Below are positions 16,617 to 62,917 of a DNA stretch of 64,000 bases, piece by piece. The stretch lies in UHGV virus genome UHGV-0312702; one strand, written 5' to 3'. How positions within the stretch are numbered: position 1 is the first letter of the stretch; each line of letters opens with the position of its first letter. Both the position numbers and the translations under genes were made by a program. The stretch is from a virus. The notes below the pieces were generated by a model, which was not told the origin of the DNA, made no database searches, and saw only the letters and a list, made by a program, of their open reading frames with translations.

Positions 16617-16692
16617 TGGAGAATCCGAAGGGACTCGAACCCTTATAAACCTGTTTTGCAGACAGGCACATAGCCATTTCTGTCACGGATTC
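16617..16692 (-). tRNA. tRNA-Cys (anticodon GCA)
   Basis: Hand-folded cloverleaf: acceptor CGGATTC pairs with GAATCCG, T-loop TTCGAGT, anticodon loop CTGCAAA, CCA encoded. Confidence 0.75.
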
Positions 16693-16696
16693 AAAT

Positions 16697-16789
16697 TGGA
16701 GGAAGATACCAGACTTGAACTGGTACACCGATTTCTCAGCTACTGGCAGTTTAGCAAACTGCTCCCTTACCTTTTAGGGTTAATCTTCC
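16697..16789 (-). tRNA. tRNA-Ser (anticodon GCT), class II with long variable arm
   Basis: Acceptor GGAAGAT/ATCTTCC, anticodon stem GCAGT/ACTGC with loop TTGCTAA, long variable arm, T-loop TTCAAGT. Confidence 0.7.
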
Positions 16790-16790
16790 A

Positions 16791-17525
16791 TTATTTCTGT
16801 AATGCGCTCTTCATTTCTGGTGTTGCAATAGTGTCAATCACACCAGTTTTACAAGCATCATCAAACCAGTCTGGTAAGATACCTGCTAAGAACCCATTGA
16901 TATTCGTTTTAAGGTACTCTGCAATAAGGGCAGCTTCTTCTTCAATCATCTGCACAACTTCATCTGCATAAGCTGTAATCTTTGAGATACCTTCATTAAT
17001 CTTACTAACAGCCTGATTAGCTAAATCAGAAACAGTATCAAGACCCTTATCAATAGCATCTTGTAAGTCACTTAATACATCATTAACGCTGTCTAGTGTA
17101 TCATTAATAGCATCAATAGCTTTTTGACCATACTCTGTAGCAACACCCATAATACCGCTGAATGGTGTACAACCAACTTGTTCTCCCGCTGCACCCATAA
17201 CATTGGAATATCCCTTTGCTACCTGCATACGTGATGAAAACTCGTCAATAGACTTTTGACCGTAGTCTGTTAGGGTCTTAGTAGTTGCTGTAGTGCTTGT
17301 CAGACTCGTTGTAAAGCTGTTTAGAAGGACTGTTGTAAGTCCAGCAGCAACAAGTTTTTCCTTCATTGCAGGGTCTGTTACAGAGCTAATAGAGCTTACA
17401 AGTGATGTAGAGGCAGCTACGGTTCCACCTAGAACTGCTGCACCAGTAATAAGGGGGTTAGAAAACCCTTTACCAGTTTTTAAGAGATTAAAAATCTCCT
17501 TACCTTGTCCTGTCATCTCTTTCAT
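16791..17525 (-). CDS. hypothetical Ser/Thr-rich protein embedded in tRNA island, about 245 aa
   Basis: ORF-track start (17588, GTG) would overlap tRNA-Phe; first ATG that clears the tRNA is at 17525. Confidence 0.5.
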   Translation of the reverse strand: MKEMTGQGKEIFNLLKTGKGFSNPLITGAAVLGGTVAASTSLVSSISSVTDPAMKEKLVAAGLTTVLLNSFTTSLTSTTATTKTLTDYGQKSIDEFSSRMQVAKGYSNVMGAAGEQVGCTPFSGIMGVATEYGQKAIDAINDTLDSVNDVLSDLQDAIDKGLDTVSDLANQAVSKINEGISKITAYADEVVQMIEEEAALIAEYLKTNINGFLAGILPDWFDDACKTGVIDTIATPEMKSALQK

Positions 17526-17543
17526 TAAGCACCTTTGAAATTG

Positions 17544-17618
17544 GTAGTCCAGTGGGATTTGAACCCTCTTCTCATGTTTTTCAGACACGCGCTTTAACCA
17601 TATAAGCTACTTGGACTA
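17544..17618 (-). tRNA. tRNA-Phe (anticodon GAA)
   Basis: Acceptor TAGTCCA/TGGACTA, anticodon stem CGTGT/ACATG, loop CTGAAAA, T-loop TTCAAAT. Confidence 0.7.
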
Positions 17619-17623
17619 TAAAT

Positions 17624-17700
17624 TGGGGTGACCTACGGGATTTGAACCCGTATAGACCATGTTCACAGCATGGGTCATTACCATTTATGATAAGGCCACA
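17624..17700 (-). tRNA. tRNA-His (anticodon GTG)
   Basis: Anticodon stem CCATG/CATGG with loop CTGTGAA; discriminator C; CCA encoded. Confidence 0.7.
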
Positions 17701-17730
17701 TTTAAGGACTCTCGTAAGAACCCTTAGAAG

Positions 17731-17806
17731 TGGCAGCGGCATAAGGATTTGAACCTTAATAGGACAGCTTCAGAGACTGTTGCATTGCCAGTTATGCTAT
17801 ACCGCT
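17731..17806 (-). tRNA. tRNA-Gln (anticodon CTG)
   Basis: Acceptor AGCGGTA/TGCCGCT, anticodon loop CTCTGAA, T-loop present. Confidence 0.65.
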
Positions 17807-17811
17807 AAATT

Positions 17812-17890
17812 TGGTACTCCATATCGGATTCGAACCGATACATAACACAGATTTTAAGTCTGGCCTCTCTGCCAATTGGAGTAATGGAGC
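17812..17890 (-). tRNA. tRNA with leucine anticodon TAA but class I architecture (short variable loop)
   Basis: Acceptor GCTCCAT/ATGGAGT, D-arm CTCC-AATTGGCAG-AGAG, anticodon stem CCAGA/TCTGT loop CTTAAAA, 7-nt variable loop, T-arm ATCGG-TTCGAAT-CCGAT, discriminator A. Confidence 0.6.
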
Positions 17891-17892
17891 AT

Positions 17893-17968
17893 TGGCGGGG
17901 GATGTTGGAATTGAACCAACTTCTTCGATTTCAAAGACCGAGGTTTTAACCTTGTAAACTAATCCCCT
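17893..17968 (-). tRNA. tRNA-Gln (anticodon TTG)
   Basis: Anticodon stem TCGGT/ATCGA loop CTTTGAA; T-arm GTTGG-TTCAATT-CCAAC; A1-C72 mismatch. Confidence 0.65.
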
Positions 17969-17976
17969 TTAAATCT

Positions 17977-18534
17977 TTACTTTCTTAGTGGATGAATAAA
18001 GAATGCCAACATAACTCTTTCCCTTGAGAATGCTCTTTCTTCTGGGACAACACTTTTAAGTTTCCACCCAACATAAATTCTCCAGTAAAATTGTTTACCA
18101 AAGACTTTAATTGATGGGATAAAAGCAAATAATCCCCAAGCATTGCTGTTCCACATTAGGAGATAACCTGTCTGATTATCTTCAGGGTTAGAACTTACGT
18201 TGATATTACCTTTCCACTTAGTAACATCTTTTACATCTCTTCCTAACACATGGTAAGAGAAGTTATAAGCTTTGTTTCTCCAGAGCCATCCAACTCTCTG
18301 CATATAAACACCGAGCTTACCAATCTTTCTAATCTTAGCCCATCGTTTGATATGACCTGCATCACCATCAATTGGGTTGTCATAAGTCTCCATCCATCTG
18401 AAACCAAAAGGCAGATGACCTTTCTTCTCACTGTAGAATGGGACTACGAAAGGTGCTAAGATAACTGCCAAGATTGCTGCAAATGGCTCTAACAAAGCTA
18501 AGAAAATCCATGAAGCATACTTCAAATATCTCAT
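17977..18534 (-). CDS. hypothetical membrane protein embedded in tRNA island, 185 aa
   Basis: ORF with hydrophobic N-terminus (IFLALLEPFAAILAVILAPFVVPF). Confidence 0.5.
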   Translation of the reverse strand: MRYLKYASWIFLALLEPFAAILAVILAPFVVPFYSEKKGHLPFGFRWMETYDNPIDGDAGHIKRWAKIRKIGKLGVYMQRVGWLWRNKAYNFSYHVLGRDVKDVTKWKGNINVSSNPEDNQTGYLLMWNSNAWGLFAFIPSIKVFGKQFYWRIYVGWKLKSVVPEERAFSRERVMLAFFIHPLRK

Positions 18535-18773
18535 TGTCTAATCCTAGTAAGGAGGTAAACATTATTATTTGTTTCTGAGTTTTCTGGTAAAGCTGTCTCA
18601 AAATTGACGCTTTTAAATTGTCTCCCACCAAAGTAATGACCAATAAATTTTTGTACTTTTATTGGGTCACATTCCCAGCCAACTTTCAAGAAAATGTGGG
18701 TATCTATAGTGGGAACCCTTACAAACTCAATACTATTGGAATTTTCATGTTCAACGACGATTAATGTTTGCAT
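18531..18773 (-). CDS. hypothetical protein, 80 aa
   Basis: ORF overlapping the start of the downstream gene by 4 nt. Confidence 0.4.
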   Translation of the reverse strand: MQTLIVVEHENSNSIEFVRVPTIDTHIFLKVGWECDPIKVQKFIGHYFGGRQFKSVNFETALPENSETNNNVYLLTRIRQ

Positions 18774-18791
18774 AAATCTCTCTTATTTATC

Positions 18792-18867
18792 TGGCGCAGG
18801 ATAAGGGACTTGAACCCCTATTAACAGCTTCGTAGACTGTTGCTCTATCCATTTGAACTAATCCTGC
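18792..18867 (-). tRNA. tRNA-Arg (anticodon ACG)
   Basis: Acceptor GCAGGAT/ATCCTGC, anticodon loop CTACGAA, CCA encoded. Confidence 0.7.
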
Positions 18868-18872
18868 AAAAT

Positions 18873-18950
18873 TGGTGTTCCAAGACGGATTCGAACCGTC
18901 ACTAGTACAAGGTTTGAGCTTGCATCCTCTGCCAATTGGGATACTGGAAC
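18873..18950 (-). tRNA. tRNA with leucine anticodon CAA but class I architecture
   Basis: Acceptor GTTCCAG/TTGGAAC, D-arm TCCC-AATTGGCAG-AGGA, anticodon stem GCAAG/CTTGT loop CTCAAAC, 6-nt variable loop, T-arm GACGG-TTCGAAT-CCGTC; only 84 nt available between flanking tRNAs. Confidence 0.6.
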
Positions 18951-18951
18951 A

Positions 18952-19026
18952 TGGTACTCACTAAAGGACTTGAACCTTTTTCTTCATCTTGTAAGGGTGA
19001 TGTTTTACCATATAAACTAAGCGAGT
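18952..19026 (-). tRNA. tRNA-Val (anticodon TAC)
   Basis: Acceptor ACTCGCT/AGTGAGT, anticodon loop CTTACAA, T-arm AAAGG/CCTTT. Confidence 0.65.
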
Positions 19027-19122
19027 GTGAAAGAGGTCTGAAGTTGTGCCACTAACTCAACTCCGTGGAATTTGTTACGGTCTTCAGTTGACTCAAAGTG
19101 GTCTTTCACTTGACCTCTGAAT
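19027..19122 (-). ncRNA. candidate structured small RNA in tRNA-cluster spacer (not a tRNA)
   Basis: 96-nt spacer with complementary ends (AGAGGTC ... GACCTCT) and nested complementary segments (GTGAAAGA/TCTTTCAC, CTGAAG/CTTCAG); no T-loop motif. Confidence 0.3.
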
Positions 19123-19198
19123 TGGTGCTCCCACAAGGATTCGAACCCTGATAAGTTGCTTACAAGGCAACCGTAATAGCCAATTATACGATAGGAGC
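19123..19198 (-). tRNA. tRNA-Thr (anticodon TGT)
   Basis: Anticodon stem GTTGC/GCAAC with loop CTTGTAA; T-loop TTCGAAT. Confidence 0.7.
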
Positions 19199-19205
19199 AT
19201 TAATT

Positions 19206-19280
19206 TGGAGCATCCAGAGGGAATCGAACCCTCAACCTCAGTTTGGAAGACTGTAATTTTCCCGTTTAAACTATGGATGC
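19206..19280 (-). tRNA. tRNA-Gly (anticodon TCC)
   Basis: Acceptor GCATCCA/TGGATGC perfect 7 bp, anticodon loop CTTCCAA. Confidence 0.7.
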
Positions 19281-19286
19281 ACTAAT

Positions 19287-19362
19287 TGGTGGAGAAGCAG
19301 GGAATTGAACCCTGTACTTAAGTTTGCAAAACTTATGTTTTAACCATGTAAACTACATCCCC
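19287..19362 (-). tRNA. tRNA-Ala (anticodon TGC)
   Basis: Anticodon stem TAAGT/ACTTA loop TTTGCAA; G3-U70 wobble pair present (Ala identity element); T-arm CAGGG-TTCAATT-CCCTG. Confidence 0.7.
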
Positions 19363-19368
19363 AATGTT

Positions 19369-19444
19369 TGGTACAGGTGGAGGGAATTGAACCCATCGTC
19401 TTACTGATTAAGAGTCAGCCGCATAACCATTTTGCTACACCTGC
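19369..19444 (-). tRNA. tRNA-Lys (anticodon CTT)
   Basis: Acceptor GCAGGTG/CACCTGT, anticodon loop CTCTTAA. Confidence 0.65.
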
Positions 19445-19451
19445 ATTAATT

Positions 19452-19528
19452 TGGTACACCTAGAGAGATTCGAACTCACACTGAGCAGATTCTAAGTCTG
19501 CTGCCTCTACCAGTTGGGCTATAGGTGC
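19452..19528 (-). tRNA. tRNA with leucine anticodon TAG but class I architecture
   Basis: Acceptor GCACCTA/TAGGTGT, D-arm GCC-CAACTGGTAGA-GGC, anticodon stem GCAGA/TCTGC loop CTTAGAA, 5-nt variable loop. Confidence 0.6.
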
Positions 19529-19786
19529 ATTAAATCTTTTTAGAGAACTTCTAAGAACCTAAGCAACAAGGTTCCACAACAAGCTGTAATAACCTTAGAA
19601 GCCCTCTAAAAAGACCTAAAAAGGTCTTTGCATAGTCTTGTTTAATCCGGTGACTAGAACCTTTGGAGAGCTTGATATTATCTCTTCTCCGTGACACCTA
19701 CTAGGTGCTTTACTGTGCGTGTACGACAATACACGAGGGATACCAAAGCAACATCCGAATGAAGCTTGGCTTTAAATCTTATTAGG

Positions 19787-19874
19787 CGGTAAGTAAAGGA
19801 GTCGAACCCTCACCGTATCTCTACAGTGGCAACTGTTTTCAAGACAGTTTGGCTACCATTAGCCGCTACCTACC
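19787..19874 (-). tRNA. tRNA-Ser (anticodon TGA), class II
   Basis: 88 nt, acceptor GGTAGGT/ACTTACC, anticodon stem ACTGT/ACAGT loop CTTGAAA, long variable arm; CCA not encoded. Confidence 0.6.
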
Positions 19875-19887
19875 CCTAATAAGACTT

Positions 19888-19970
19888 TGGCATGGGACGG
19901 AGGAGTTGAACCCCTTTGAAACGGTTTTGGAGGCCGTTGCTCATGCCTTAGAGTCTTAACATCGTCCCAC
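19888..19970 (-). tRNA. tRNA-Trp (anticodon CCA), atypically long 5' half
   Basis: Acceptor GTGGGAC/GTCCCAT, anticodon loop CTCCAAA, T-arm GGGG-TTCAACT-CCTC; D-arm region about 7 nt longer than canonical. Confidence 0.5.
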
Positions 19971-20112
19971 ACTATAATTCGAAACTTACCGTATTATCTC
20001 AACACTGTAAAGCCCCTTCTCAGATTATTTACATGTTCTGGAAAACATGAGATACAGACCACCTCCCTACAGGAAGACCCGCTTAGGTCGTCTAAGTAAT
20101 CTGCTAACTAAT

Positions 20113-20189
20113 TGGCACACCCTACAGGATTCGAACCTGTAACTAACGATTTAGAAGACCGTTGCTCTATCCAATTGAACTAAGGGTGC
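20113..20189 (-). tRNA. tRNA-Arg (anticodon TCT)
   Basis: Anticodon stem ACGGT/ATCGT loop CTTCTAA; acceptor GCACCCT/AGGGTGT. Confidence 0.65.
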
Positions 20190-20526
20190 ATTAATCTTTA
20201 AAGACTCTCTTAGAAAGCCCTTAAAGATGCCCACCTTATTAATCATACCGTGGGCTAGTACGCCAAATTCTTTGATGAGGGATTGGAAGACCTCACTGGT
20301 GTTTAGCCTATCAAGCTACTGCCAGAAAAACATTGTCGTTTGCATTTATTTTAAATTTGCAAAATAGACGCTACGCAACGAAAACTATTCAGAATATGTA
20401 CAACAAATTTCCCCACATTGTGTTACGTCTAACGCTCATGTATTGGTGTTTGAATTATACATATTATGAATTATTTTTAGTTACTATAAAGTAGTCACAT
20501 CTCAATGTCAACAACTTTATTGAAAT

Positions 20527-20601
20527 TGGTTGTAGGTGAGGGTATCGAACCCTCTTCTAACGGTTATCAGCCGTTTGCATTACCATTTATGCTAACCCAC
20601 A
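20527..20601 (-). tRNA. tRNA-Ile (anticodon GAT)
   Basis: Anticodon stem AACGG/CCGTT loop CTGATAA; T-arm GAGGG-TTCGATA-CCCTC. Confidence 0.7.
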
Positions 20602-20602
20602 A

Positions 20603-20680
20603 TTGGAGGTTCAGGTGGGAATCGAACCCACATTCATAGGGCTTATGAAACCCCTGCATTACCTTATCTGCGACTGAACC
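20603..20680 (-). tRNA. tRNA-Met (anticodon CAT), elongator-like
   Basis: Perfect acceptor GGTTCAG/CTGAACC, anticodon stem GGGGT/GCCCT loop TTCATAA. Confidence 0.6.
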
Positions 20681-20684
20681 ATAT

Positions 20685-20760
20685 TGGTAGAAGTGGAGGG
20701 ATTCGAACCCATCGCCTGTCAGATTAAAAGTCTGCCGCATCACCATTCTGCTACACTTCC
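20685..20760 (-). tRNA. tRNA-Lys (anticodon TTT)
   Basis: Acceptor GGAAGTG/CACTTCT, anticodon loop CTTTTAA. Confidence 0.65.
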
Positions 20761-20909
20761 ATTAAATTATCTTTGTAGATAAGCTACCCAGACTTGCTTA
20801 AGGTCTGTAGCGATGTGCCTTGTTGGGTTTAAATCTAGAATTTACCCTTTCACCCTTTGTGGTCGCATACTCACAGGTAAGCTTAATAGCTCACCTACAA
20901 AGATAATTA

Positions 20910-21041
20910 CCAGACCGTTGTTTATCATCTTAAGTGCTACCATTACACCAACTCGACATCTGCCGAGTGAAGGAATCGAACCTTCGCCTTTTCTTTACCG
21001 GAGAAATAGATTGTTTAAGTTTTGCTGTAAACGGTCTTCTG
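20910..21041 (-). repeat. bounded spacer unit D (CCAGACC ... TGCTGTAAACGGTCTTCTG) containing a tRNA-like T-arm
   Basis: Shares both end motifs with units at 21055, 21484, 21637; contains GAAGG-AATCGAA-CCTTC (tRNA T-arm signature at 20969-20985) but no canonical anticodon loop or acceptor pairing. Confidence 0.5.
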
Positions 21042-21054
21042 TAAATTTGTTGAG

Positions 21055-21128
21055 CCAGACCAAGTTTTAAATTTTCAAAATTAAATTGGCTTGAAATTTC
21101 ATACATTCTTGCTGAATTTGGTCTTCTG
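21055..21128 (-). repeat. bounded spacer unit A (CCAGACC ... TGCTGAATTTGGTCTTCTG)
   Basis: Same terminal motifs as units B, C, D; the two ends are mutually complementary (AGACC/GGTCT). Confidence 0.5.
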
Positions 21129-21215
21129 CTCCTTTAAAGAATACTCGCAAGAACTCTTTAAGGGAGGGGCTAAATAGCCCTCTCAAAACATCATTTTGAA
21201 ATACTTATTATAATT

Positions 21216-21293
21216 TGGCGGTTACGAAGGGATTTGAACCCTCATCATCTCCCGTGACAGGGGAGTATTTTAACCAGATTAAACTACATAACC
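21216..21293 (-). tRNA. tRNA-Asp (anticodon GTC)
   Basis: Anticodon stem CTCCC/GGGAG loop CTGTCAC; acceptor GGTTATG/CGTAACC. Confidence 0.65.
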
Positions 21294-21298
21294 TTTAT

Positions 21299-21386
21299 TG
21301 GTGTGCCGTGTAGGAGTCGAACCTACCGAGTCTCAATGACAAGGGATTTACAGTCCCCACCGCTACCATCTACGGGATAACGACAC
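21299..21386 (-). tRNA. tRNA-Tyr (anticodon GTA), class II
   Basis: 88 nt; acceptor GTGTCGT/ACGGCAC, anticodon stem GGGA/TCCC loop CTGTAAA, long variable arm. Confidence 0.65.
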
Positions 21387-21395
21387 ATTTTAATT

Positions 21396-21472
21396 TGGCG
21401 GTTAGTCAGGGATTCGAACCCTGTGCCATTCGCTTAACAGGCGACCGCACATACCTTATGTGCTTCCTAACC
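21396..21472 (-). tRNA. tRNA-Asn (anticodon GTT)
   Basis: Anticodon loop CTGTTAA; T-arm CAGGG-TTCGAAT-CCCTG. Confidence 0.65.
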
Positions 21473-21483
21473 TTAATACATTG

Positions 21484-21542
21484 CCAGACCGTGTTTTTCT
21501 TTTATCCGCAAAAAGTAGTTTGTTGCTGAATACGGTCTTCTG
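21484..21542 (-). repeat. bounded spacer unit B (CCAGACC ... TGCTGAATACGGTCTTCTG)
   Basis: 59-nt unit between tRNA-Asn and the second CAT tRNA with the same end motifs. Confidence 0.5.
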
Positions 21543-21548
21543 CAAAAT

Positions 21549-21625
21549 TGGAGGCGGGTGCAGGAGTCGAACCTGCCGATACCATGCTAATGAGACATGT
21601 GAGACGCCCTTTCTCTATACCCGCA
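21549..21625 (-). tRNA. tRNA with anticodon CAT, second copy (initiator Met or Ile-lysidine type), atypical
   Basis: Anticodon stem CATGT/GCATG loop CTCATTA (pyrimidine at 37); acceptor pairs only with a 1-72 mismatch or a 1-nt register shift; D-stem GAGA/TCTC. Confidence 0.5.
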
Positions 21626-21636
21626 ATTCTTAATGA

Positions 21637-21709
21637 CCAGACCAAATCTCTTCTTTGTCCGATTGAATGTCAGATGAATAAGATTAAATTTGCTGTAATT
21701 GGTCTTCTG
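21637..21709 (-). repeat. bounded spacer unit C (CCAGACC ... TGCTGTAATTGGTCTTCTG)
   Basis: 73-nt unit between the CAT tRNA and tRNA-Glu with the same end motifs. Confidence 0.5.
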
Positions 21710-21716
21710 TCAAAAC

Positions 21717-21791
21717 TGGTGTCGTAGACAGGATTCGAACCTGCGAGCAACTGATTGAAGGTCAGGTGGCTAACCATTTGCCTTCTACGAC
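21717..21791 (-). tRNA. tRNA-Glu (anticodon TTC), C at position 33
   Basis: Perfect acceptor GTCGTAG/CTACGAC, anticodon stem CTGA/TCAG with loop CCTTCAA. Confidence 0.55.
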
Positions 21792-21792
21792 A

Positions 21793-22149
21793 TTAAACCA
21801 TTGTAATTCCACTATGAACCTCTCTGTGGCAATTAGCGCATAGCAAAACACATTTATCAAGTTCTTTTTTAACCTTTTCCCAAGATGCACCCATAAGTTT
21901 TGATGGTGTATTCTCTTTTTCGTTTGGGTTAAGGTGATGCCATTCTAAAGCATTTTTACATTTATTATAGCCACAAATTATGCAACTATCGCCATAAAGC
22001 TTATATGCTTTCTCCCTATTGGCATCCTCTCTAAGTTTTGTCCTTAATGCACAACATTTTAGACAATTTACTCTATTACCGGCGTTACCATTCTTATGAA
22101 TGCTATGTTCAGTTAAACCATGAACTGGACATTCTTTTAAAAATCTCAT
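21793..22149 (-). CDS. HNH homing endonuclease, about 118 aa
   Basis: Cys-rich zinc-finger region plus HNH motif (EWHHLNP ... LLCANCHREVH); ORF-track start at 22227 overlaps tRNA-Pro, so the start is placed at the ATG at 22149. Confidence 0.7.
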   Translation of the reverse strand: MRFLKECPVHGLTEHSIHKNGNAGNRVNCLKCCALRTKLREDANREKAYKLYGDSCIICGYNKCKNALEWHHLNPNEKENTPSKLMGASWEKVKKELDKCVLLCANCHREVHSGITMV

Positions 22150-22166
22150 AGTAACCCCTTTAAATT

Positions 22167-22243
22167 TGGTCTCTGTTGGAGGACTTGAACCTCCGGCCTT
22201 ACCGCCCCAAACGGAACGCTCTACCAAGCTGAGCTAAACAGAG
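22167..22243 (-). tRNA. tRNA-Pro (anticodon TGG)
   Basis: Perfect acceptor CTCTGTT/AACAGAG, D-arm GCTC-AGCTTGGTA-GAGC, anticodon loop TTTGGGG, T-arm GGAGG-TTCAAGT-CCTCC. Confidence 0.75.
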
Positions 22244-48917: not shown

Positions 48918-48946
48918 AAATTAAAAAGGCTCCCGTAGGAGCCTCT
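48918..48946 (-). terminator. terminator-like hairpin between the Nampt-like gene and the next gene
   Basis: AGGCTCC-CGTA-GGAGCCT; on - strand followed by TTTTTAATTT. Confidence 0.5.
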
Positions 48947-48958
48947 TATCATATACTT

Positions 48959-50740
48959 TTAAAGCTGCTTGTCAATATTATTTCGAATATCACCAAGAGA
49001 TGTGTAACCATACTGCTCAGAATCACTAAAGACTAAGCGTAGAGCACAAGCTGGATGTTCAAGTGCATCTGCAAAGCTTTGGAATCCATAGCCATCTACA
49101 GCTTTCAGTTTATCACCATCCCACATAGGTGCTACACCACCAAAAGCAGACTTCTTAACACCACTATCTGTTTTAGGGTCTTTTGCAAGCATAATCTCTT
49201 TACCACCAATGCTTGCAAGAGTTGCTTTAACAGCAAATGCAAAGGTGTCACGAGTCATGTACTGGTAAGTGTAAGAGCCTACGCCAAACACTACGTTAGA
49301 GCTTGCAAAACCCATTTCATACAGACGCTTCAGGATTTCGTTTGCACGTTCCAGTGTGATAGAGTCACCATAGATAAGGCCAATATGTTCATCCAGTACC
49401 TTAAAACCTTTGGAGTTGATAGTCCCTCCGAAGATGTTATACAGAGTCTTAATAGCTCCATCAATCTCTGCTACAGGACGTGTTACAACGTTTGCAGAAC
49501 CAACCATATAAGCATTTTTCAACATCACTGTATCGGCAACTTCAAAGTCTTCTCGGTCAACAACCATTTCGTAGCCTTCTGACAGTAGCCATCCAGCAAT
49601 ACCATAGCTGATGTTTTCAAGCTTCATATTCAGAACAGCATTTAACATTGTGTCGCTGGCTTCCAGCTTACTAAGGTGCTCATAATAAGCCTTTTTAGCG
49701 CACTCTAAGTGGATTGCTTTATAACCTGTGACAATATGTACAGGGTCTCCAGAGTCAGGACGAATTACCAGTTTACCGTCACGTTCCATAATCTCTTTGC
49801 GAAGTGCTGGTAAGATTTCTGACACAGTTCTCCAGAAGTTATAAGTATCTGAAACAACACTTGCAATACCAGTCGGGTAAGTCTCTGTTAAGAAACGACG
49901 GAAGGTCTGCAACTCACCTTTAAAGCGTCTTTCCTCTTCAATCAATTCATTACCACCTTCCCAAGCAATGTTTGCACACATTACAGAGTGTTCAGTGGCT
50001 GGTACAGAACCACCAATATCAGAGATTGGGTAAGACTGTCCGTAGATGCGTTTAGCTGTATATACAGCAGGGAAGCTATCAGTTCCTTTAAAGCTGGTCA
50101 AGTGGCCTACAGCATTAAATGCGTCATCAGTAAAGCCTGACATACCACGCATAGCAAAGTCATGGCACTGATAAGGTAAATGCAAGTCATTGTCACAAGT
50201 AAGGTCAGCCCACTTCTTACAGATACGTTTGTAGTGCAATGCAATAGTTGCAATGGTACAAGCCTTCCAAATTTCAGCAGAGAAAGAATCTTCCAGATAC
50301 CCCGCTACCCAATGGAAGCCTGAAACAGTATTCTGGAAGACAATCATTGGGACACGCATAGGGACAACTGTGCCTTCTTCTACAGCGTATACTTCAACTG
50401 GCAGATAACCTAAGTCGTGAAGTGCTTCCCAATGTTCTCGACCAATAGCATCTTTACCCAGAACACCGTTCATGACTTCTAAGATTTCGTCAATTGCTTC
50501 TTTTTTGTCACGCTCAAAGAAAGTGGCGTTCCAATGGTCTACCAAGTAATCTTTAACAAAGCGTTGAATACCAAAAGCTACTACACCGTCAATTGCTAAG
50601 GGGCTGTTAAACCATTTGTCACTACGTGGTGTCAGGTTGAACATCAAGTACTCTGTTGCGCTAGGATACTGGTAAACATGACCAGATTTGTAAGCATCTG
50701 CATTCAAACCTGCTGGTACTGCATAAAGTGATTTAGTCAT
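48959..50740 (-). CDS. nadV: nicotinamide phosphoribosyltransferase-family protein (Nampt/NadV-like, or the Nampt-homologous Namat), 593 aa
   Basis: Length and overall similarity to Nampt-family proteins from memory; paired with a Prs-like gene immediately upstream. Confidence 0.7.
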   Translation of the reverse strand: MTKSLYAVPAGLNADAYKSGHVYQYPSATEYLMFNLTPRSDKWFNSPLAIDGVVAFGIQRFVKDYLVDHWNATFFERDKKEAIDEILEVMNGVLGKDAIGREHWEALHDLGYLPVEVYAVEEGTVVPMRVPMIVFQNTVSGFHWVAGYLEDSFSAEIWKACTIATIALHYKRICKKWADLTCDNDLHLPYQCHDFAMRGMSGFTDDAFNAVGHLTSFKGTDSFPAVYTAKRIYGQSYPISDIGGSVPATEHSVMCANIAWEGGNELIEEERRFKGELQTFRRFLTETYPTGIASVVSDTYNFWRTVSEILPALRKEIMERDGKLVIRPDSGDPVHIVTGYKAIHLECAKKAYYEHLSKLEASDTMLNAVLNMKLENISYGIAGWLLSEGYEMVVDREDFEVADTVMLKNAYMVGSANVVTRPVAEIDGAIKTLYNIFGGTINSKGFKVLDEHIGLIYGDSITLERANEILKRLYEMGFASSNVVFGVGSYTYQYMTRDTFAFAVKATLASIGGKEIMLAKDPKTDSGVKKSAFGGVAPMWDGDKLKAVDGYGFQSFADALEHPACALRLVFSDSEQYGYTSLGDIRNNIDKQL

Positions 50741-50785
50741 CTTTTAGTCTCTCTCAAAATGGGGCTTATAAGCCCCTATAAACTT

Positions 50786-51682
50786 TCAATCAATGGTTGC
50801 TACAGTCACTTGGCTATAATGTGTTAAGCCACGGTCCTTAGCTTCACCTAAAGTGTTTGTAGTGTAGATATGGTCTATTCCATTGTCAAGCAAGTTTTCA
50901 ACACCTTTAGAGAAAATTCCATGAGTTACATAGAGTTCCACACGTTTTGCACCCGCTTCACGAAGATGTTTAGCTGCTTCTATGAAGGTTCTACCGCCAT
51001 CACAAATATCATCAAGAATCATGACAGTTTTATCTGTCAAATCAACATCATCAAGGATTCTCATACCAGTAATCTCACCAGTCTTAAGGTTACGTACCTT
51101 AGACATTGTGATATATGGTTTATCTACTTCTTTAGCGGTATCTTCAGTCTTCTTAGCTGCACCTGCATCTGGGGCTACCAAGAAATCAATACGTGGGTCA
51201 CTTGCAAAGTGTGCTGCCACATCTTTTTGCTTCATACTCTGGAAGCACTTAAATAAGTTTTCCGCAACATTGCTGTGAGGGTCAAGAGCGCATACTGCAT
51301 CAAAGCCCATTGCATTAACGAGGTTGGCAAAAACTTTCAGTGCTGCCGAATCACCTTTGAACATGTGACGGTCATATCGAGCGTTTGGTAGGTATCCGAA
51401 AACAACGGTTTTCATCGCTGATTTATGGGGAACAAGACTGTCAACAACATCCTTAGCAAGAGCTAATGCAAATAGTGTATCTTTGTCATATCCCTGCACA
51501 GTGAGTATAACATTATCAATCTTACCAGCATTACGCTCAGTAAACTTAACAAAATCTTCAGAGAAGTTTCCACCAATTTCTCCAGATGGGAATTGGATAA
51601 TGTTAAATTTTTCTGCGTGGAAGAATTTCTCTTGTGCGGTGACAACGGCTTCAATAACAGTTTTCATAGTTTTCTCTCTCAA
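50786..51682 (-). CDS. prs: ribose-phosphate pyrophosphokinase-family protein (Prs-like, or the Prs-homologous Adps), 298 aa
   Basis: PRPP-binding motif VMILDDICDGGRTF ... AGAKRVELYVTHGIFS and ALDPHS motif, as in PRPP synthetases. Confidence 0.75.
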   Translation of the reverse strand: MREKTMKTVIEAVVTAQEKFFHAEKFNIIQFPSGEIGGNFSEDFVKFTERNAGKIDNVILTVQGYDKDTLFALALAKDVVDSLVPHKSAMKTVVFGYLPNARYDRHMFKGDSAALKVFANLVNAMGFDAVCALDPHSNVAENLFKCFQSMKQKDVAAHFASDPRIDFLVAPDAGAAKKTEDTAKEVDKPYITMSKVRNLKTGEITGMRILDDVDLTDKTVMILDDICDGGRTFIEAAKHLREAGAKRVELYVTHGIFSKGVENLLDNGIDHIYTTNTLGEAKDRGLTHYSQVTVATID

Positions 51683-51957
51683 TCAAAAGTTACGTTTGTT
51701 ACTGCCATTGTAGATTTGCATTTTGCAGGGTCTACAATGTGATAAAGTACACTACAGTTGCCTGTGCTGTCTGGTACAGGCTTTACCCATTGTTGCTTGA
51801 CAGTTGGTTCTCCTAAGTCTTTGTAAGAACCATCTGTAAAATTGTTTATCATCTCAAGTGCAATTGGTTCTGGAACATGACCTCGTATCATGTACATCTC
51901 ACAACCATTACCACCTTCGCTAACTAATGGTAAAATCTCCCACTTTTCTTTAGCCAT
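51679..51957 (-). CDS. hypothetical protein, 92 aa
   Basis: ORF. Confidence 0.4.
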   Translation of the reverse strand: MAKEKWEILPLVSEGGNGCEMYMIRGHVPEPIALEMINNFTDGSYKDLGEPTVKQQWVKPVPDSTGNCSVLYHIVDPAKCKSTMAVTNVTFD

Positions 51958-52465
51958 TATAAGTTGCCCTATAAACTGTCTCGAACTTCAACAGGAGAGA
52001 TATTGCCAAATCTGTATAGTTGTTGTCAAGCACATCTGGCATATTATTTTTGATATATTTCTCTTGCTCTTCATAGGTCATCTTAGGGGTGCTTAGAAGG
52101 CTATCTCCTTGCTTCTGGTTATCAGCTTTAGTTTGTATAAACCAGTTTGCACAGTGATGTTCACCACCCTTTGTAACAGGTTTGTGGTGACCTAATGTGA
52201 AGGCTTGGTTACCTGTGTATCTGCAAAGTTTATTGAGTACTGTGATGGTGTTCTTCACAACAAAACATTCATACAGGTTATCTATAGTATAGTGTGGGTA
52301 ATATCGAAATAATGCTCTTTCACGAGTGCTCTCACGATTCCAGAGAATCATGTGATTGGAGTTGGAAGGGTCGTATTGGTGGGAGTCAATGAACTCTTGA
52401 CGTTCCTCAAAGCTTAGTCTTAGAACTGACATTGCAGCCGAACGTTTCAGGTTTGACAGATACAT
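51950..52465 (-). CDS. HNH-like endonuclease, 171 aa
   Basis: Motif LGHHKPVTKGGEHHCANW resembles an HNH core. Confidence 0.4.
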   Translation of the reverse strand: MYLSNLKRSAAMSVLRLSFEERQEFIDSHQYDPSNSNHMILWNRESTRERALFRYYPHYTIDNLYECFVVKNTITVLNKLCRYTGNQAFTLGHHKPVTKGGEHHCANWFIQTKADNQKQGDSLLSTPKMTYEEQEKYIKNNMPDVLDNNYTDLAISLLLKFETVYRATYNG

Positions 52466-52516
52466 TTTATCTCCAAAATAAAAAGGGAACCTTTACAGTC
52501 CCCTTATAGTATCTGT

Positions 52517-52837
52517 TTACTGAGCTACTTTCAAGATGCTTGTGAATGAAATCTCACTCTCATCCATAAATTCTTTTGCTTCTCCAGTAACTTTTACAAA
52601 GTTATCTAGGCAGATAATTTTCTTATCTTTCTTGCTGTAGGTTAGCTTAACCTTTTCAATATCTTTCTTAGAACTTTTCTCTTCATTAAAGAGTTTTACA
52701 GCTTCTTTGAATGGTAGGTATGAACCATCATCGTCGCTAATAAAACCTGTGCCGCAATAGTAGAAGTTATATTCTTTAGCCATAAACTGGCACAGTACGA
52801 AAATCTGTAATTTGCGAGTGTTATAAACTTTGCTCAT
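52517..52837 (-). CDS. hypothetical protein, 106 aa
   Basis: ORF. Confidence 0.4.
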   Translation of the reverse strand: MSKVYNTRKLQIFVLCQFMAKEYNFYYCGTGFISDDDGSYLPFKEAVKLFNEEKSSKKDIEKVKLTYSKKDKKIICLDNFVKVTGEAKEFMDESEISFTSILKVAQ

Positions 52838-54488: not shown

Positions 54489-56633
54489 TTACATGGAGAC
54501 TCTATCACGAATCTCAGCAATTTTTGCATCGTTCATTCGGGATTCACCTTTAATCTTAGTCCACCCAAGATAACCGCACACCCTGTTAATCACAGAGATA
54601 TCGTGTGAATGGCAAACCTCACATTCTTCAACGTCAGCCTTTGGTCTGTTACCACAATGCTCACAGATTGCTAAGTCAAAGTTAAGTCCCTGATAAAAAC
54701 CTTTCAACATCCCTCTTGTAATACAACTTTTAAGTGCTATTAAGTTTTCTGGGTTAGCTACCCTGACATACTGGATTCTCCCACCTCTACAGATATGGAA
54801 GAATGGCTCTTCTAAGTCCTGCTTCTCAAATGGTGAGATGTCTGCTGCGACATTCATATGGAAACTGTTTGTAAAGTATTCCTTATCAGAAACACCTTTG
54901 ATAACACCAAACATATCCCTGAACTGTTTTAGCTGAGTTCCACAAAGTGATTCTGCTGGAGTGCCATATACGGCATATAAGAAGCCATCTTCATCTTTAA
55001 ACTCTTCAGTTTTCATGTTGATGTATGCCAGAACATCATATGCAAAACTGTAGCTTCCAACTTCATGAAGTCGTTTACCTTCAGCAAGAACAGACAACTC
55101 ATCAAGCGCAGTAACCCCAAAAGAAGCTGTGAAAGATTTCACGATATCCCAGCCAACCTTGTCAGTAGATTTCTTAGTCCCTTTGTACAGACCACCTTGT
55201 GTGAATGCAAGAGGGTTAGAACTTGCTGGCATATTAGCAATCATTTCGTAGCGTTTCTTGTGGAAGCTACGAATCATCTCTAGGTACTTATCAAGCTCTT
55301 TCCAGAAATCTAAACCATTCTCTTTAGAGTACTGGTAAATCATTGGCAAGTTCAAAGATACAGCACCAATGTTAGCACGACCAACGTAAAACTCTTCCCC
55401 ATCCTCATTAAGATATGGTGATAAGAAGGCTCTGCAACCCATCGGTGAAATTACCTTACCAGAACGCTCAAAAGCCTCTGCTACAGCACCATGACCAGAC
55501 ACACTTAAGAAGTCTGGGTACATTGCTTTAGAGCAACATTCAATAGCTTTACTGTACAGTTGGCCTTGACAGATATTTTCATCATGTCTCTTCTGGTCAT
55601 AAATATAAACCAGTTTAGGGAATACAACAGGTTTTTTGCTCTTACCTTGTCCATTCATACGAACATCTAGGAGAGTACTTGCAATCATGTATTGTAGTCG
55701 ATTATCTTCATTAGACATATCTGAGTCAAGTAACCCAAATGTTAAAGTTGTAAATGCAAAATCACCACGGCTGCAAGGTACAGTGTTTAGTTTCATCTCA
55801 AGTGACTGAAAACCTTGAGTCAGTTCAATCTGTAGCTGCTCCATTACATAATTATAATAATGCTCTTTAGGAATACCATAAGATGATGCTTTCTCAGCAT
55901 GATAGCGTAGAGACTTCTTAGCATATGGTACAAGTACCTTATCAATCTCTGCTAAAGTAAAACCACCAAATTGCTGTGCAGTTGCTGAAAGTACTACGTC
56001 ACCAATAACCTGTAAGGCTGACAGTACAGATTTAGGTTCACAGTACTCAATGCCGGACATTTCAAAGCCACCTTTCAGTACTTTACCAATGTCAAACAGG
56101 CAACAGTTGATACCACCAAAAATCAGGTCTCTTAAATCGTGGATATAGATAAAGCCTTTTTCAATGGCTTCAAGTTCCTCTGGTGTTAGGTGATACTGCT
56201 TAAAGATTTCTTTAGTCAGGTAACCACGGATAATTGAACCTTTCGTAGAAATTAAACTACTGTCAAAGTTAGCATTTTCACGGTCACCTAAGAAGAGTGT
56301 GTCTCTAGTCTTCTGGTAAAGCTCATCCCAATTTTGAGCAACTTCTTTACGGTAATTTCTGTATGTTGAGTAAGACTCATAAATCTCGTGATTAACTTCT
56401 GCCAAAGCACCTTCAACAATGCTGTGAATATCATTTACCGAGATAAGCAAATTATTCTGCTTAGTGGACTTTACCAGAATCCTCATAAATGCTGACTCAA
56501 GAGCTTGGGTAACATCTGGTGGAAGTTCTTTATACCCAACCCTGTTAGCTGACTTAGTTACTGCTGCTAAAACTTTTTTGATATCAGGTTCTTCAAGTGA
56601 GCCATTCTTTTTAATAATCTGTACTTTGTTCAT
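54489..56633 (-). CDS. nrdD: anaerobic (class III) ribonucleotide reductase, 714 aa
   Basis: C-terminal glycyl-radical motif RVCGYLG preceded by a Cys-rich zinc ribbon (CEHCGN ... CEVCH). Confidence 0.85.
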   Translation of the reverse strand: MNKVQIIKKNGSLEEPDIKKVLAAVTKSANRVGYKELPPDVTQALESAFMRILVKSTKQNNLLISVNDIHSIVEGALAEVNHEIYESYSTYRNYRKEVAQNWDELYQKTRDTLFLGDRENANFDSSLISTKGSIIRGYLTKEIFKQYHLTPEELEAIEKGFIYIHDLRDLIFGGINCCLFDIGKVLKGGFEMSGIEYCEPKSVLSALQVIGDVVLSATAQQFGGFTLAEIDKVLVPYAKKSLRYHAEKASSYGIPKEHYYNYVMEQLQIELTQGFQSLEMKLNTVPCSRGDFAFTTLTFGLLDSDMSNEDNRLQYMIASTLLDVRMNGQGKSKKPVVFPKLVYIYDQKRHDENICQGQLYSKAIECCSKAMYPDFLSVSGHGAVAEAFERSGKVISPMGCRAFLSPYLNEDGEEFYVGRANIGAVSLNLPMIYQYSKENGLDFWKELDKYLEMIRSFHKKRYEMIANMPASSNPLAFTQGGLYKGTKKSTDKVGWDIVKSFTASFGVTALDELSVLAEGKRLHEVGSYSFAYDVLAYINMKTEEFKDEDGFLYAVYGTPAESLCGTQLKQFRDMFGVIKGVSDKEYFTNSFHMNVAADISPFEKQDLEEPFFHICRGGRIQYVRVANPENLIALKSCITRGMLKGFYQGLNFDLAICEHCGNRPKADVEECEVCHSHDISVINRVCGYLGWTKIKGESRMNDAKIAEIRDRVSM

Positions 56634-62419: not shown

Positions 62420-62917
62420 TCAAGCACAGTTTGCTTTCATTACCTTATGGATTCTTTTTTCAGCATCTTCATAAGTTTCTTTAGTAATAAACTTAATTGC
62501 TGCAATATTGGCATTGTAGAAGAGTCTGAGCTTAGAGTCAATCCTTTTTGTCATTACATCGAATTTATGTTGGAGGTTTGCTTCACCATAAACTAGACCA
62601 CCTTTTGTGTAGTAGGTCTGAATAATGTAAAAGTCAAAAAATTCTTTTCCAAAACTCTCAATATCTTTTTTAATATACTCAGAAGAAGTCTCATAAGTCA
62701 TCCAATCACTCTCCTTAGTGACTACCTTCTTCCGAGTCTTGCCAGCAACCTTTCTTTTAGTCACACTATTAAGCTGTTTCTTTCCAATATAATATTGTCC
62801 GGTTTTCTTACAGTGTACTAAATAGACAAAGCCAAAATGTTTAGTGGGGTCAACTTCCCCACATAAAGATACCCAATGACCATAGGTAGGGCAATTGCCA
62901 AATCCTTTAATCTTCAT
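62420..62917 (-). CDS. GIY-YIG-like homing endonuclease, 165 aa
   Basis: FVYLVHCKKTGQYYIGKK has the GIY-(10 aa)-YIG spacing, followed by a conserved Arg. Confidence 0.45.
   Translation of the reverse strand: MKIKGFGNCPTYGHWVSLCGEVDPTKHFGFVYLVHCKKTGQYYIGKKQLNSVTKRKVAGKTRKKVVTKESDWMTYETSSEYIKKDIESFGKEFFDFYIIQTYYTKGGLVYGEANLQHKFDVMTKRIDSKLRLFYNANIAAIKFITKETYEDAEKRIHKVMKANCA

Follow-up and report, generated by a model that had tools for sequence, protein, structure and literature searches.

NAD+ reconstitution pathway 1 (NARP1) was described in 2024, and the operon of its discovery consists of genes 79-80 of Escherichia phage JohannRWettstein, or Bas63 (Osterman et al., bioRxiv 10.1101/2024.02.11.579819). 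Deprived of these two genes, Bas63 plates about 20-fold more poorly on SIR2-HerA, and both the recovery of NAD+ and an ADPR-PP species of m/z 720.010 are lost; the effect requires neither pncC nor nadR of the host (Osterman et al.). The formation of ADPR-PP in cells infected with Bas63 has been observed in vivo, by metabolomics. The Adps of the Bas63 type purified poorly and was for that reason left out of the in vitro assays. The two reactions (ADPR + ATP to ADPR-PP and ADPR-PP + nicotinamide to NAD+) have been demonstrated in vitro with enzymes of SPbetaL1, ICP1, DyoEdafos and Paenibacillus.

Adps and Namat of Bacillus phage SPbetaL1 have been assayed biochemically, and crystal structures of its Namat are available as 9W5W and 9W5X (NAR 2026, PMC12774641). 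From Vibrio phage ICP1, whose genes are called NrsA/NrsB, structures of Adps have been solved in apo, substrate-bound and product-bound forms (NAR 2026, PMC13586617). Namat enzymes keep the capacity to make NMN from PRPP in vitro, and they prefer ADPR-PP when both donors are present. Two extensions of the system have the same Adps-Namat core: NARP1-AP, with a Macro-domain phosphatase, Adpp (bioRxiv 10.64898/2026.01.28.702374), and a form with a RyR-domain glycosidase, RyDEP (bioRxiv 10.64898/2026.05.28.727677). NARP2 of Vibrio phage KVP40, consisting of the Nampt NadV and the Nmnat NatV, also restores NAD+ against NAD-depleting defences and has the Nampt fold in common with Namat, but it uses PRPP and needs an NMN adenylyltransferase (NMNAT).

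The pair of genes considered here lies in a 64-kb stretch of DNA (the window) from a Felixounavirus, which matches many FelixO1-like phages at approximately 94-96% nucleotide identity. An initial annotation had left open whether the pair serves classical NAD+ salvage or NARP1, a question already settled in the literature. NARP1 was described in 2024 with genes 97-98% identical to those of the window, and the locus therefore presents a known system and no new biology. I conclude with high confidence that the adps-namat pair is NARP1, a two-enzyme counter-defence operon of Felixounavirus, on the basis of its orthology to the founding operon, the published signatures of both enzymes, the intact operon and the absence of a detected NMNAT. 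According to this scheme, a host defence of the SIR2, TIR or SEFIR type would split NAD+ into ADP-ribose and nicotinamide, Adps would form ADPR-PP by moving the beta-gamma pyrophosphate of ATP to the distal ribose of ADP-ribose, and Namat would exchange the pyrophosphate of ADPR-PP for nicotinamide, yielding NAD+ directly, without NMN or an NMN adenylyltransferase.

The adps-namat operon and its counterpart in Bas63

The features of the region are listed below in the direction of transcription.

52506..52534, minus strand: putative sigma-70-like promoter, TTGAAA-17-TACTAT (9/12 in a consensus scan), preceding a four-gene unit
52483..52505, minus strand: terminator-like hairpin with T-run (9-bp stem, 4 GC pairs), closing the upstream unit
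51950..52465, minus strand: ORF of 171 aa, orthologue of Bas63_0077 and first gene of the unit (PHROG 3500, E 1e-92)
51679..51957, minus strand: ORF of 92 aa, orthologue of Bas63_0078 and second gene of the unit (PHROG 4726, E 2e-59)
50786..51667, minus strand: adps, predicted Prs-like ADP-ribose pyrophosphate synthetase of 293 aa
50761..50776, minus strand: conserved adps-namat hairpin, GGGGCT-TATA-AGCCCC, followed by ATTTTG
48959..50740, minus strand: namat, predicted Nampt-fold nicotinamide ADP-ribose transferase of 593 aa, with ATG start
48948..48975, minus strand: putative sigma-70-like promoter, TTGACA-16-TATGAT (11/12), for the gene after namat
48924..48947, minus strand: terminator-like hairpin, AAGAGGCTCC-TACG-GGAGCCTTTT (10-bp stem), at the end of the unit

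The adjacent Prs-like and Nampt-like genes called by the initial annotation are indeed present on the minus strand between 48959 and 51682, and both ORFs are far above chance expectation. The antisense ORFs within adps and namat I take to be spurious. The 593-aa protein was rightly assigned to the Nampt family, as judged by PHROG 448, "nicotinamide phosphoribosyl transferase" (E 3e-202), and by the equivalog model NF006629 of NCBIfam, which it passes (E 5e-140). Its neighbour had been described as a protein of 298 aa with PRPP-synthetase motifs. The motifs are there (PHROG 619, E 1e-99; TIGR01251, E 8e-41), but the length holds only for the maximal ORF (50786-51682, minus strand), which begins with TTG. 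The start is most likely the ATG at 51667, giving a product of 293 aa, because the gene upstream ends with a stop codon that overlaps the TTG at 51682, GAGAGAGAAAACT precedes the ATG, the equivalent ATG is the annotated adps start in Bas63, AYO145A, TP1 and Sf14, and a 1-nt deletion in Sf14 leaves the codon upstream of the adps ATG no longer in frame with it.

Adps is identical to Bas63_0079 at 283 of 293 positions (97%) and Namat to Bas63_0080 at 582 of 593 (98%), the differences being 10 and 11 substitutions, respectively, in gap-free alignments. By analogy, the enzymes of the window would be expected to behave like those of Bas63. The two phages, members of the same genus, also agree in gene order: rIIA on one side of the region, nrdG and nrdD on the other, ORFs 77 and 78 upstream of adps, the intergenic hairpin and the flanking promoter and terminator modules. 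The 345-nt bas63_0081, just downstream of namat in Bas63, is missing from the window. NARP1 loci have been recognized by homologues of adps and namat that are adjacent (separated by at most 10 genes) and on the same strand, with adps first (Osterman et al.), and the pair in the window is so arranged. The order is also that of SPbetaL1. The stop of adps at 50786 and the ATG of namat at 50740 are 45 nt apart, leaving no room for an extra gene.

The pair is apparently co-transcribed with the two conserved ORFs upstream, and the sigma-70-like promoter at 52534 is probably the one that host RNA polymerase uses. Both hexamers of this promoter are kept in Bas63 and TP1, and the second reads TATGAT in Sf14. 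The start site predicted from it lies in the 5' arm of the hairpin next to it (52483..52505). This hairpin directly precedes GGAG, the ribosome-binding site of the unit's first gene, is kept in Bas63, TP1 and Sf14, and has an equivalent in AYO145A that is annotated as a rho-independent terminator. The 171-aa ORF has a weak HNH-like motif and a weak match to the HNH endonuclease PHROG 2214 (E 1e-4), and Erwinia phage FIfi106 has a homologue (52% identical) in the corresponding place before its adps. The 92-aa ORF belongs to no Pfam family and is detectable beside NARP1 in close relatives only.

Between adps and namat, the hairpin and its ATTTTG are followed by GAGAGAGA, the ribosome-binding site of namat. 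The stem is invariant and the loop variable in Bas63, TP1 and the Mooglevirus Sf14, and AYO145A has the element annotated as a rho-independent terminator. Its energy is unexceptional in comparison with shuffled sequences (z -1.17), and the support for this hairpin comes from conservation, not energy. It may act as an attenuator or as a stabiliser of RNA. At the other end of the unit, the promoter at 48948..48975 overlaps the 3' end of namat, is conserved and is annotated as a promoter in AYO145A, while the hairpin at 48924..48947 begins 12 nt past the namat stop and is identical in Bas63, TP1 and Sf14. A search of Rfam returned tRNAs only.

Signatures of the two enzymes

Raw identity fails to separate Adps from Prs: the Adps of the window is 29% identical to the assayed enzyme of SPbetaL1, 31% to that of ICP1 and 27% to Prs of E. 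coli, a canonical PRPP synthetase of class I. The distinction therefore requires profile scores and signature residues. The reference residues were R87, H121, D161, D212, D213, D216 and K185 of ICP1 Adps and K162 of SPbetaL1 Adps. The acceptor residues are kept (R97, H131, D167, D219, D220 and D223), and K190 aligns with K185 of ICP1 and K162 of SPbetaL1, the catalytic lysine of the beta-hairpin. The PP-loop, DDICDG, is identical to that of ICP1. Two residues differ from ICP1: F92, the contact to the adenine of ADPR, is replaced by M102, and F223 of the ATP lid by E230. Adps has in common with E. coli Prs the motifs of the two-domain PRPS fold (FPSGE, ARxDR, DPH and DDxxDxG) but lacks the C-terminal alpha11-alpha12 module, and when the two are aligned it stops approximately 20 residues before E. 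coli Prs does. The same truncation is found in ICP1 Adps, and the absence of the module is considered in the literature a defining signature of the Adps family. The Pribosyl_synth profile is covered from position 64 to 147 of 184 by Adps and from 74 to 183 by E. coli Prs.

Other profiles separate the proteins further. Pfam Pribosyltran_N (PF13793) scores 179.5 bits with E. coli Prs and about 18 bits with validated Adps, and the Adps of the window has lost the match altogether. With NF002320, a subfamily model of NCBIfam (cutoff 297), Prs reaches 532.6 bits, validated Adps 64-76 and the Adps of the window 103.7. The latter misses all Prs equivalog cutoffs of NCBIfam by a wide margin, the best being NF002095 (114.4 bits; cutoff 296). 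The sole Prs model that it passes is TIGR01251, a broad subfamily (cutoff 113), with 139.9 bits, as compared to 96-106 bits, below the cutoff, for three validated Adps, a score that would allow for some residual activity on ribose-5-phosphate. Used as a phmmer query, Adps finds ICP1 Adps with 116 bits, twice the 58 bits of E. coli Prs, and the best Prs in PDB with 71. Its nearest 150 clusters at 50% identity score at least 142 bits and contain proteins of 223-392 aa, mostly of 260-300 aa. The Adps of Bas63 was both query and member of the published Adps clade (Osterman et al.). Judged by these comparisons, the Adps of the window belongs in that clade and not with cellular Prs. Its N-terminus is about 20 aa longer than that of SPbetaL1, and the N-domain (aa 1-175), whose allele is shared with Bas63 and differs from that of TP1, appears to be recombinant, one of the deeply divergent forms exchanged by recombination within the genus.

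The published signature of Namat is GSX-Phi-X-Phi-X-Phi-TRD, where X is aromatic, and the clamp helix in the window, G488-S-Y490-T-Y-Q-Y494-M-T-R-D498, fits it. Namat of SPbetaL1, FADO and ICP1 reads GS[FY]TYQY[NV]TRD at this place, whereas all three Nampts of the NARP2 type (KVP40, F86 and phiKp15) have GGGLLQ... instead of the aromatic motif (GGGLLQQLDRD in KVP40 NadV). In the clamp loop, the stacking residue is by the published rule an Arg at position 3 (R40 in SPbetaL1) or the residue that follows a Lys or Tyr. The loop in the window, S40-D41-K42-W43, is the same as in Bas63, where the fourth residue has been assigned this role in the literature, and by that rule W43 would supply the stacking. 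The catalytic core, common to cellular Nampt, is intact: H251 lies within TEHS and R327, the equivalent of catalytic R306 in SPbetaL1, within RPDSGDP, and both columns are invariant in an alignment of 46 sequences.

Overall identity is 45-49% to validated Namats (46% to SPbetaL1), as against 29-31% to Nampts of the NARP2 type (29% to KVP40 NadV). Pfam NAMPT_N scores 25.5 bits with the Namat of the window and 136.5 with KVP40 NadV. NF006629, however, cannot tell Namat from Nampt, since a validated Namat (593.7 bits) outscores the KVP40 Nampt (508.1 bits). The top PDB matches of an AlphaFold2 model of Namat (pLDDT 93.2) are the crystal structures of Namat, the best being 9W5X of SPbetaL1 (TM 0.95). 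With respect to SPbetaL1, the protein has two lineage-specific insertions, at aa ~258-272 (~14 aa) and ~340-427 (~85 aa). A fold search with the larger one gave only helical matches below threshold.

Accessory genes and alternative readings

The initial annotation had seen no NMNAT in the window, and a closer search agrees: with NadD and NadR of E. coli as queries, tblastn returned nothing beyond noise (E at least 3.6), and neither a GxFxPxHxGH nor a Nudix-box motif occurs in the window's ORFs of at least 80 aa. Nor did one come to light when the window was taken together with three stretches of Bas63 that make up approximately 97% of that genome, where NadD- or NadR-like matches were absent (E at least 0.45) and the annotation of the stretches, with its many hypothetical proteins, names no NMNAT or Nudix enzyme. 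These searches, by E. coli NadD and NadR and by motif scans, have limited sensitivity; the ~23 kb of genome outside the window were covered through the annotation of Bas63 only. In KVP40, natV was not found near nadV, three candidate neighbours having no relevant Pfam domain. A TxGH motif at 62887 was considered as a possible nucleotidyltransferase and rejected, as the motif of the ORF is that of a GIY-YIG-type homing endonuclease. The seven flanking ORFs scanned contain no Macro or RyR domain detectable by Pfam. With no NMNAT, Macro or RyR gene found, the locus is best described as plain two-gene NARP1, not as NARP2 or NARP1-AP.

The pair could be read as classical salvage, in which a true PRPP synthetase and a true Nampt make NMN and the host converts it to NAD+ through NadR or PncC/NadD. 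Public records annotate both genes in this way, both NF006629 (equivalog) and TIGR01251 (subfamily) are passed, Namat makes NMN from PRPP in vitro, and the neighbours nrdD and nrdG are genes of nucleotide metabolism. I nonetheless regard salvage as very improbable, given that NF006629 does not discriminate and that Adps falls below every Prs equivalog cutoff and has neither the Pribosyltran_N match nor the C-terminal module. A pathway of the NARP2 type, with NMN made by Nampt and converted to NAD+ by a phage NMN adenylyltransferase or Nudix enzyme encoded elsewhere, might draw on the fold shared with KVP40 NadV and on the ~23 kb outside the window. It is largely refuted, its probability close to nil, by the low identity to NadV and the presence of the aromatic motif that NARP2-type proteins lack, and by the searches of the window and of Bas63; moreover, no phage was found to have both pathways, and 97% of the members of the Adps clade have Namat as a neighbour (Osterman et al.). 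The leaning of the initial annotation towards NARP1 is thus borne out by the 97% and 98% orthologues in Bas63, the same synteny, the signatures of both enzymes and the lack of a detected NMNAT.

Two further possibilities are compatible with NARP1 or elaborate it. Namat may also turn host PRPP into NMN in undefended cells, boosting NAD+ for replication, and Adps may keep some Prs activity, as its profile scores, more Prs-like than those of the three assayed Adps, might suggest. This dual use is unlikely, in view of the preference of Namat for ADPR-PP when both donors are present and of the finding that NARP1 phages, unlike those with NARP2, gave no rise of NAD+ in defence-free cells (Osterman et al.). 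The divergent, recombining alleles of the Adps N-domain and the apparent co-transcription with two conserved ORFs might reflect a functional elaboration of NARP1 in Felixounavirus (extra regulation, coupling of Adps to Namat, a changed range of substrates or evasion of some host factor directed against Adps), to which I also give little chance.

As NARP1, the operon predicts that FelixO1-like phages used in therapy resist NAD+ depletion of the SIR2, TIR and SEFIR types. By the published logic, plain NARP1 should not recognise ADPR-1''-phosphate, the product of aRES, and these phages are accordingly predicted to be vulnerable to aRES.

Public records still name the genes "ribose-phosphate pyrophosphokinase" and "nicotinamide/nicotinate phosphoribosyltransferase", and curated models do likewise. 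Namat can be told apart quickly and reliably by its aromatic clamp motif, by a neighbouring adps and by the absence of an NMNAT. In the record of phage PPSC2, the label "macro domain protein" sits on the Namat gene itself.

The operon, its genes and its counterpart in Bas63

The window is from a Felixounavirus. In all, 258 phage records match the operon region, at no more than 94.9% nucleotide identity, and nearly all come from FelixO1-like phages of Escherichia, Salmonella and Shigella. The same group matches the first 25 kb at about 96%, and the locus has rIIA, NrdG and NrdD as neighbors. At the top of the operon matches, with 94.9%, stands GU169904.1, a record named Staphylococcus phage SA1; since all the other matches are enterobacterial FelixO1-like phages, the name or content of that record looks anomalous. 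An array of 25 tRNA genes (ARAGORN; 24 by Rfam), usual for FelixO1-like phages, lies at 16617-22243 on the minus strand.

Features of the locus
52534-52483, minus strand: module 1, a conserved sigma-70-like promoter with an overlapping terminator hairpin
51950-52465, upstream of and co-oriented with the NARP1 genes: 171-aa ORF with an HNH-like stretch (HHKPVTKGGEHHCANW...NQKQG)
50755-50776, between adps and namat: hairpin GGGGCT/AGCCCC with a short T-run, annotated as a rho-independent terminator in phage AYO145A
48975-48924, minus strand: module 2, a conserved sigma-70-like promoter with an overlapping terminator hairpin

The two reading frames of the initial annotation lie where it placed them, on the minus strand at 48959-50740 (593 aa from ATG) and 50786-51682 (298 aa from TTG), separated by 45 nt. 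The length of 298 aa, however, is a mechanical maximum. I take the Prs-like protein to be 293 aa, because the TTG lies partly within the stop codon that ends the preceding gene, a ribosome-binding site (GAGAGAGA) precedes the ATG at 51667, this ATG is the annotated adps start in four related phages, and in phage Sf14 the upstream codon and the adps ATG are in different frames. The 298-aa reading frame matches Pribosyltran, Pribosyl_synth, TIGR01251 (E 8e-41) and PHROG 619 (E 1e-99), and the 593-aa protein matches the Pfam families NAPRTase and NAMPT_N, NCBIfam NF006629 (E 5e-140) and PHROG 448 (E 3e-202).

Among the matching phages is Escherichia phage JohannRWettstein (Bas63), whose genes bas63_0079 and bas63_0080 have the same order and context as adps and namat and whose proteins align with those of the window without gaps. 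NARP1 was discovered in exactly this bas63_0079-0080 operon (Osterman et al., bioRxiv 10.1101/2024.02.11.579819). [quoted passage not shown] The reactions were shown with homologues from phage SPbetaL1, since the Bas63 protein purified poorly: Adps converts ADPR and ATP to ADPR-PP with no Prs product, and Namat converts ADPR-PP and nicotinamide to NAD+, its sole product under competition from PRPP.

Signatures of Namat and Adps

Standard annotation does not decide between Namat and Nampt, since NF006629 scores validated Namat and the KVP40 Nampt alike. A Namat-specific selectivity clamp has been defined by Lan et al. (PMC12774641), comprising a helix (consensus GSX-Phi-X-Phi-X-Phi-TRD, with positions 3 and 7 aromatic) and a loop providing the residue that stacks. 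The window protein was aligned with the Namats of Bas63, SPbetaL1, FADO and ICP1, with KVP40 NadV and with two other NARP2-type Nampts. It has the clamp helix G488-S-Y-T-Y-Q-Y-M-T-R-D498 and the clamp loop K42-W43, a pattern shared by the validated Namats, while in the three Nampts the loop is shorter and the helix reads GGGLLQ.... The SPbetaL1 counterpart of R327 is R306, and H251, equivalent to human H247, sits in a conserved TEHS motif. Identity is 45-49% to the Namats and 29-31% to the Nampts. Modeled with AlphaFold2 (pLDDT 93.2), the protein superposes most closely on two crystal structures of Namat, 9W5X and 9W5W (TM 0.95 on target), with H. ducreyi NadV (9KE8/9KEO) and mammalian NAMPT structures ranking below them.

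For Adps, raw identity says little, at 27% to E. coli Prs and 29-31% to assayed Adps. From their structure of ICP1 Adps, Liu et al. (PMC13586617) named three features of the family: the acceptor residues, Lys185 as the catalytic lysine, and a C-terminus that has lost the alpha11-alpha12 module of PRPS. The window protein possesses R97, H131, D167, D219, D220, D223 and K190 (K162 in SPbetaL1), a PP-loop DDICDG identical to that of ICP1 Adps, and a truncated C-terminus.

Profile scores, in bits
Pfam Pribosyltran_N: E. coli Prs 179.5; validated Adps about 18; window Adps no hit
NCBIfam NF002320: E. coli Prs 532.6; validated Adps 64-76; window Adps 103.7
NCBIfam TIGR01251 (cutoff 113): E. coli Prs 422.7; validated Adps 96-106; window Adps 139.9

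By phmmer the window protein reaches 116 bits against ICP1 Adps but 58 against E. coli Prs. Its best 150 hits among 1.84 billion cluster representatives (at least 142 bits) are mostly short, of Adps length (about 260-300 aa). The window protein nonetheless resembles Prs somewhat more than the assayed Adps proteins do, and for this reason I allow a slight chance that it retains residual Prs activity.

NARP1 and its relatives

The initial annotation had left the choice between NARP1 and a classical Prs plus Nampt pair open. The identity to the founding Bas63 operon (283/293 and 582/593 residues), the signatures of both proteins and the failure to find an NMNAT support NARP1, and by orthology and signature the locus is very probably of this kind. 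Host NADases would split off ADPR and nicotinamide, Adps would pyrophosphorylate ADPR with ATP to give ADPR-PP, and Namat would join ADPR-PP to nicotinamide to yield NAD+, steps that others have demonstrated for orthologues and homologues.

NARP2 needs an NMNAT, and I reject it because none was found in the window, as the initial annotation had said, or in three stretches that make up about 97% of the Bas63 genome: NadD and NadR of E. coli, used as tblastn queries, gave nothing above noise in either, plausible ORFs contain no HxGH or Nudix motif, and the Bas63 annotation lists no NMNAT over the three stretches. The extended forms, NARP1-AP and the RyDEP variant, require a Macro or RyR gene within the operon; they are rejected as well, since Pfam found neither domain in the seven flanking ORFs and the gap between adps and namat is only 45 nt. 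With NMNAT, Macro and RyR genes all not found in these searches, the locus is read as the plain two-gene pathway.

Chromosomal homologues of Namat (P0068, P0072, P0083, P0111 and P0118; 495-496 aa, 40-48% identical) occur on Mb-scale contigs of Klebsiella, Cronobacter, Phytobacter, Kosakonia and Erwinia. All have the Namat motif, as GS[FY]TYQYNTRD, and probably represent bacterial NARP1; their annotation is nicotinate phosphoribosyltransferase.

A mosaic adps and the layout of the operon

Compared with Felixounavirus TP1, nucleotide identity falls to 62-79% over 51170-51669 alone, the 5' half of adps, and is 90-97% in the flanks. At the protein level the C-domain of Adps is 94% identical and the N-domain 66%, further from the window than that of the Mooglevirus Sf14 (77%). 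The 5' half is a recombination block and Adps a mosaic. Bas63 and AYO145A share the window allele. Namat at least 95% identical is found in 207 records of the phage database and such an Adps in only 45; most Felixounaviruses there have an Adps only 60-90% identical overall and a Namat at least 95% identical. The mosaic leaves the identity of the locus unchanged and is of interest to the literature on arms races.

Between the two promoter/terminator modules lies a four-gene unit: the 171-aa ORF, a 92-aa ORF, adps and namat. Independent annotation in the AYO145A record places a terminator at the upstream module and a promoter at the downstream one. In both modules the predicted transcription start falls inside the 5' arm of the hairpin, so that read-through transcripts would terminate and promoter-started transcripts would not form the hairpin. 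The stem of the intergenic hairpin is invariant and its loop variable across Felixounavirus and Mooglevirus, and it may set the Adps:Namat ratio. I infer transcription of the unit by the host polymerase, with attenuation at this hairpin.

Erwinia phage FIfi106 has a homologue of the 171-aa ORF (52% identical) in the same position, and its Namat is only 46% identical. A 345-nt gene directly downstream of namat in Bas63 (bas63_0081) and TP1 is absent from the window (about 48908) and from Sf14; the indel is precise, with a repeated CTATG at its flanks. The window nrdD is a single uninterrupted 714-aa ORF (54489-56633), while that of Bas63 is annotated as a join of two pieces over 2887 nt and so presumably contains an intervening sequence absent from the window phage. 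Adjoining an exonuclease gene, a 165-aa ORF at 62420-62917 has a GIY...YIG-type motif (FGFVYLVHCKKTGQYYIGKK) and, judged from that motif alone, is probably a homing endonuclease.
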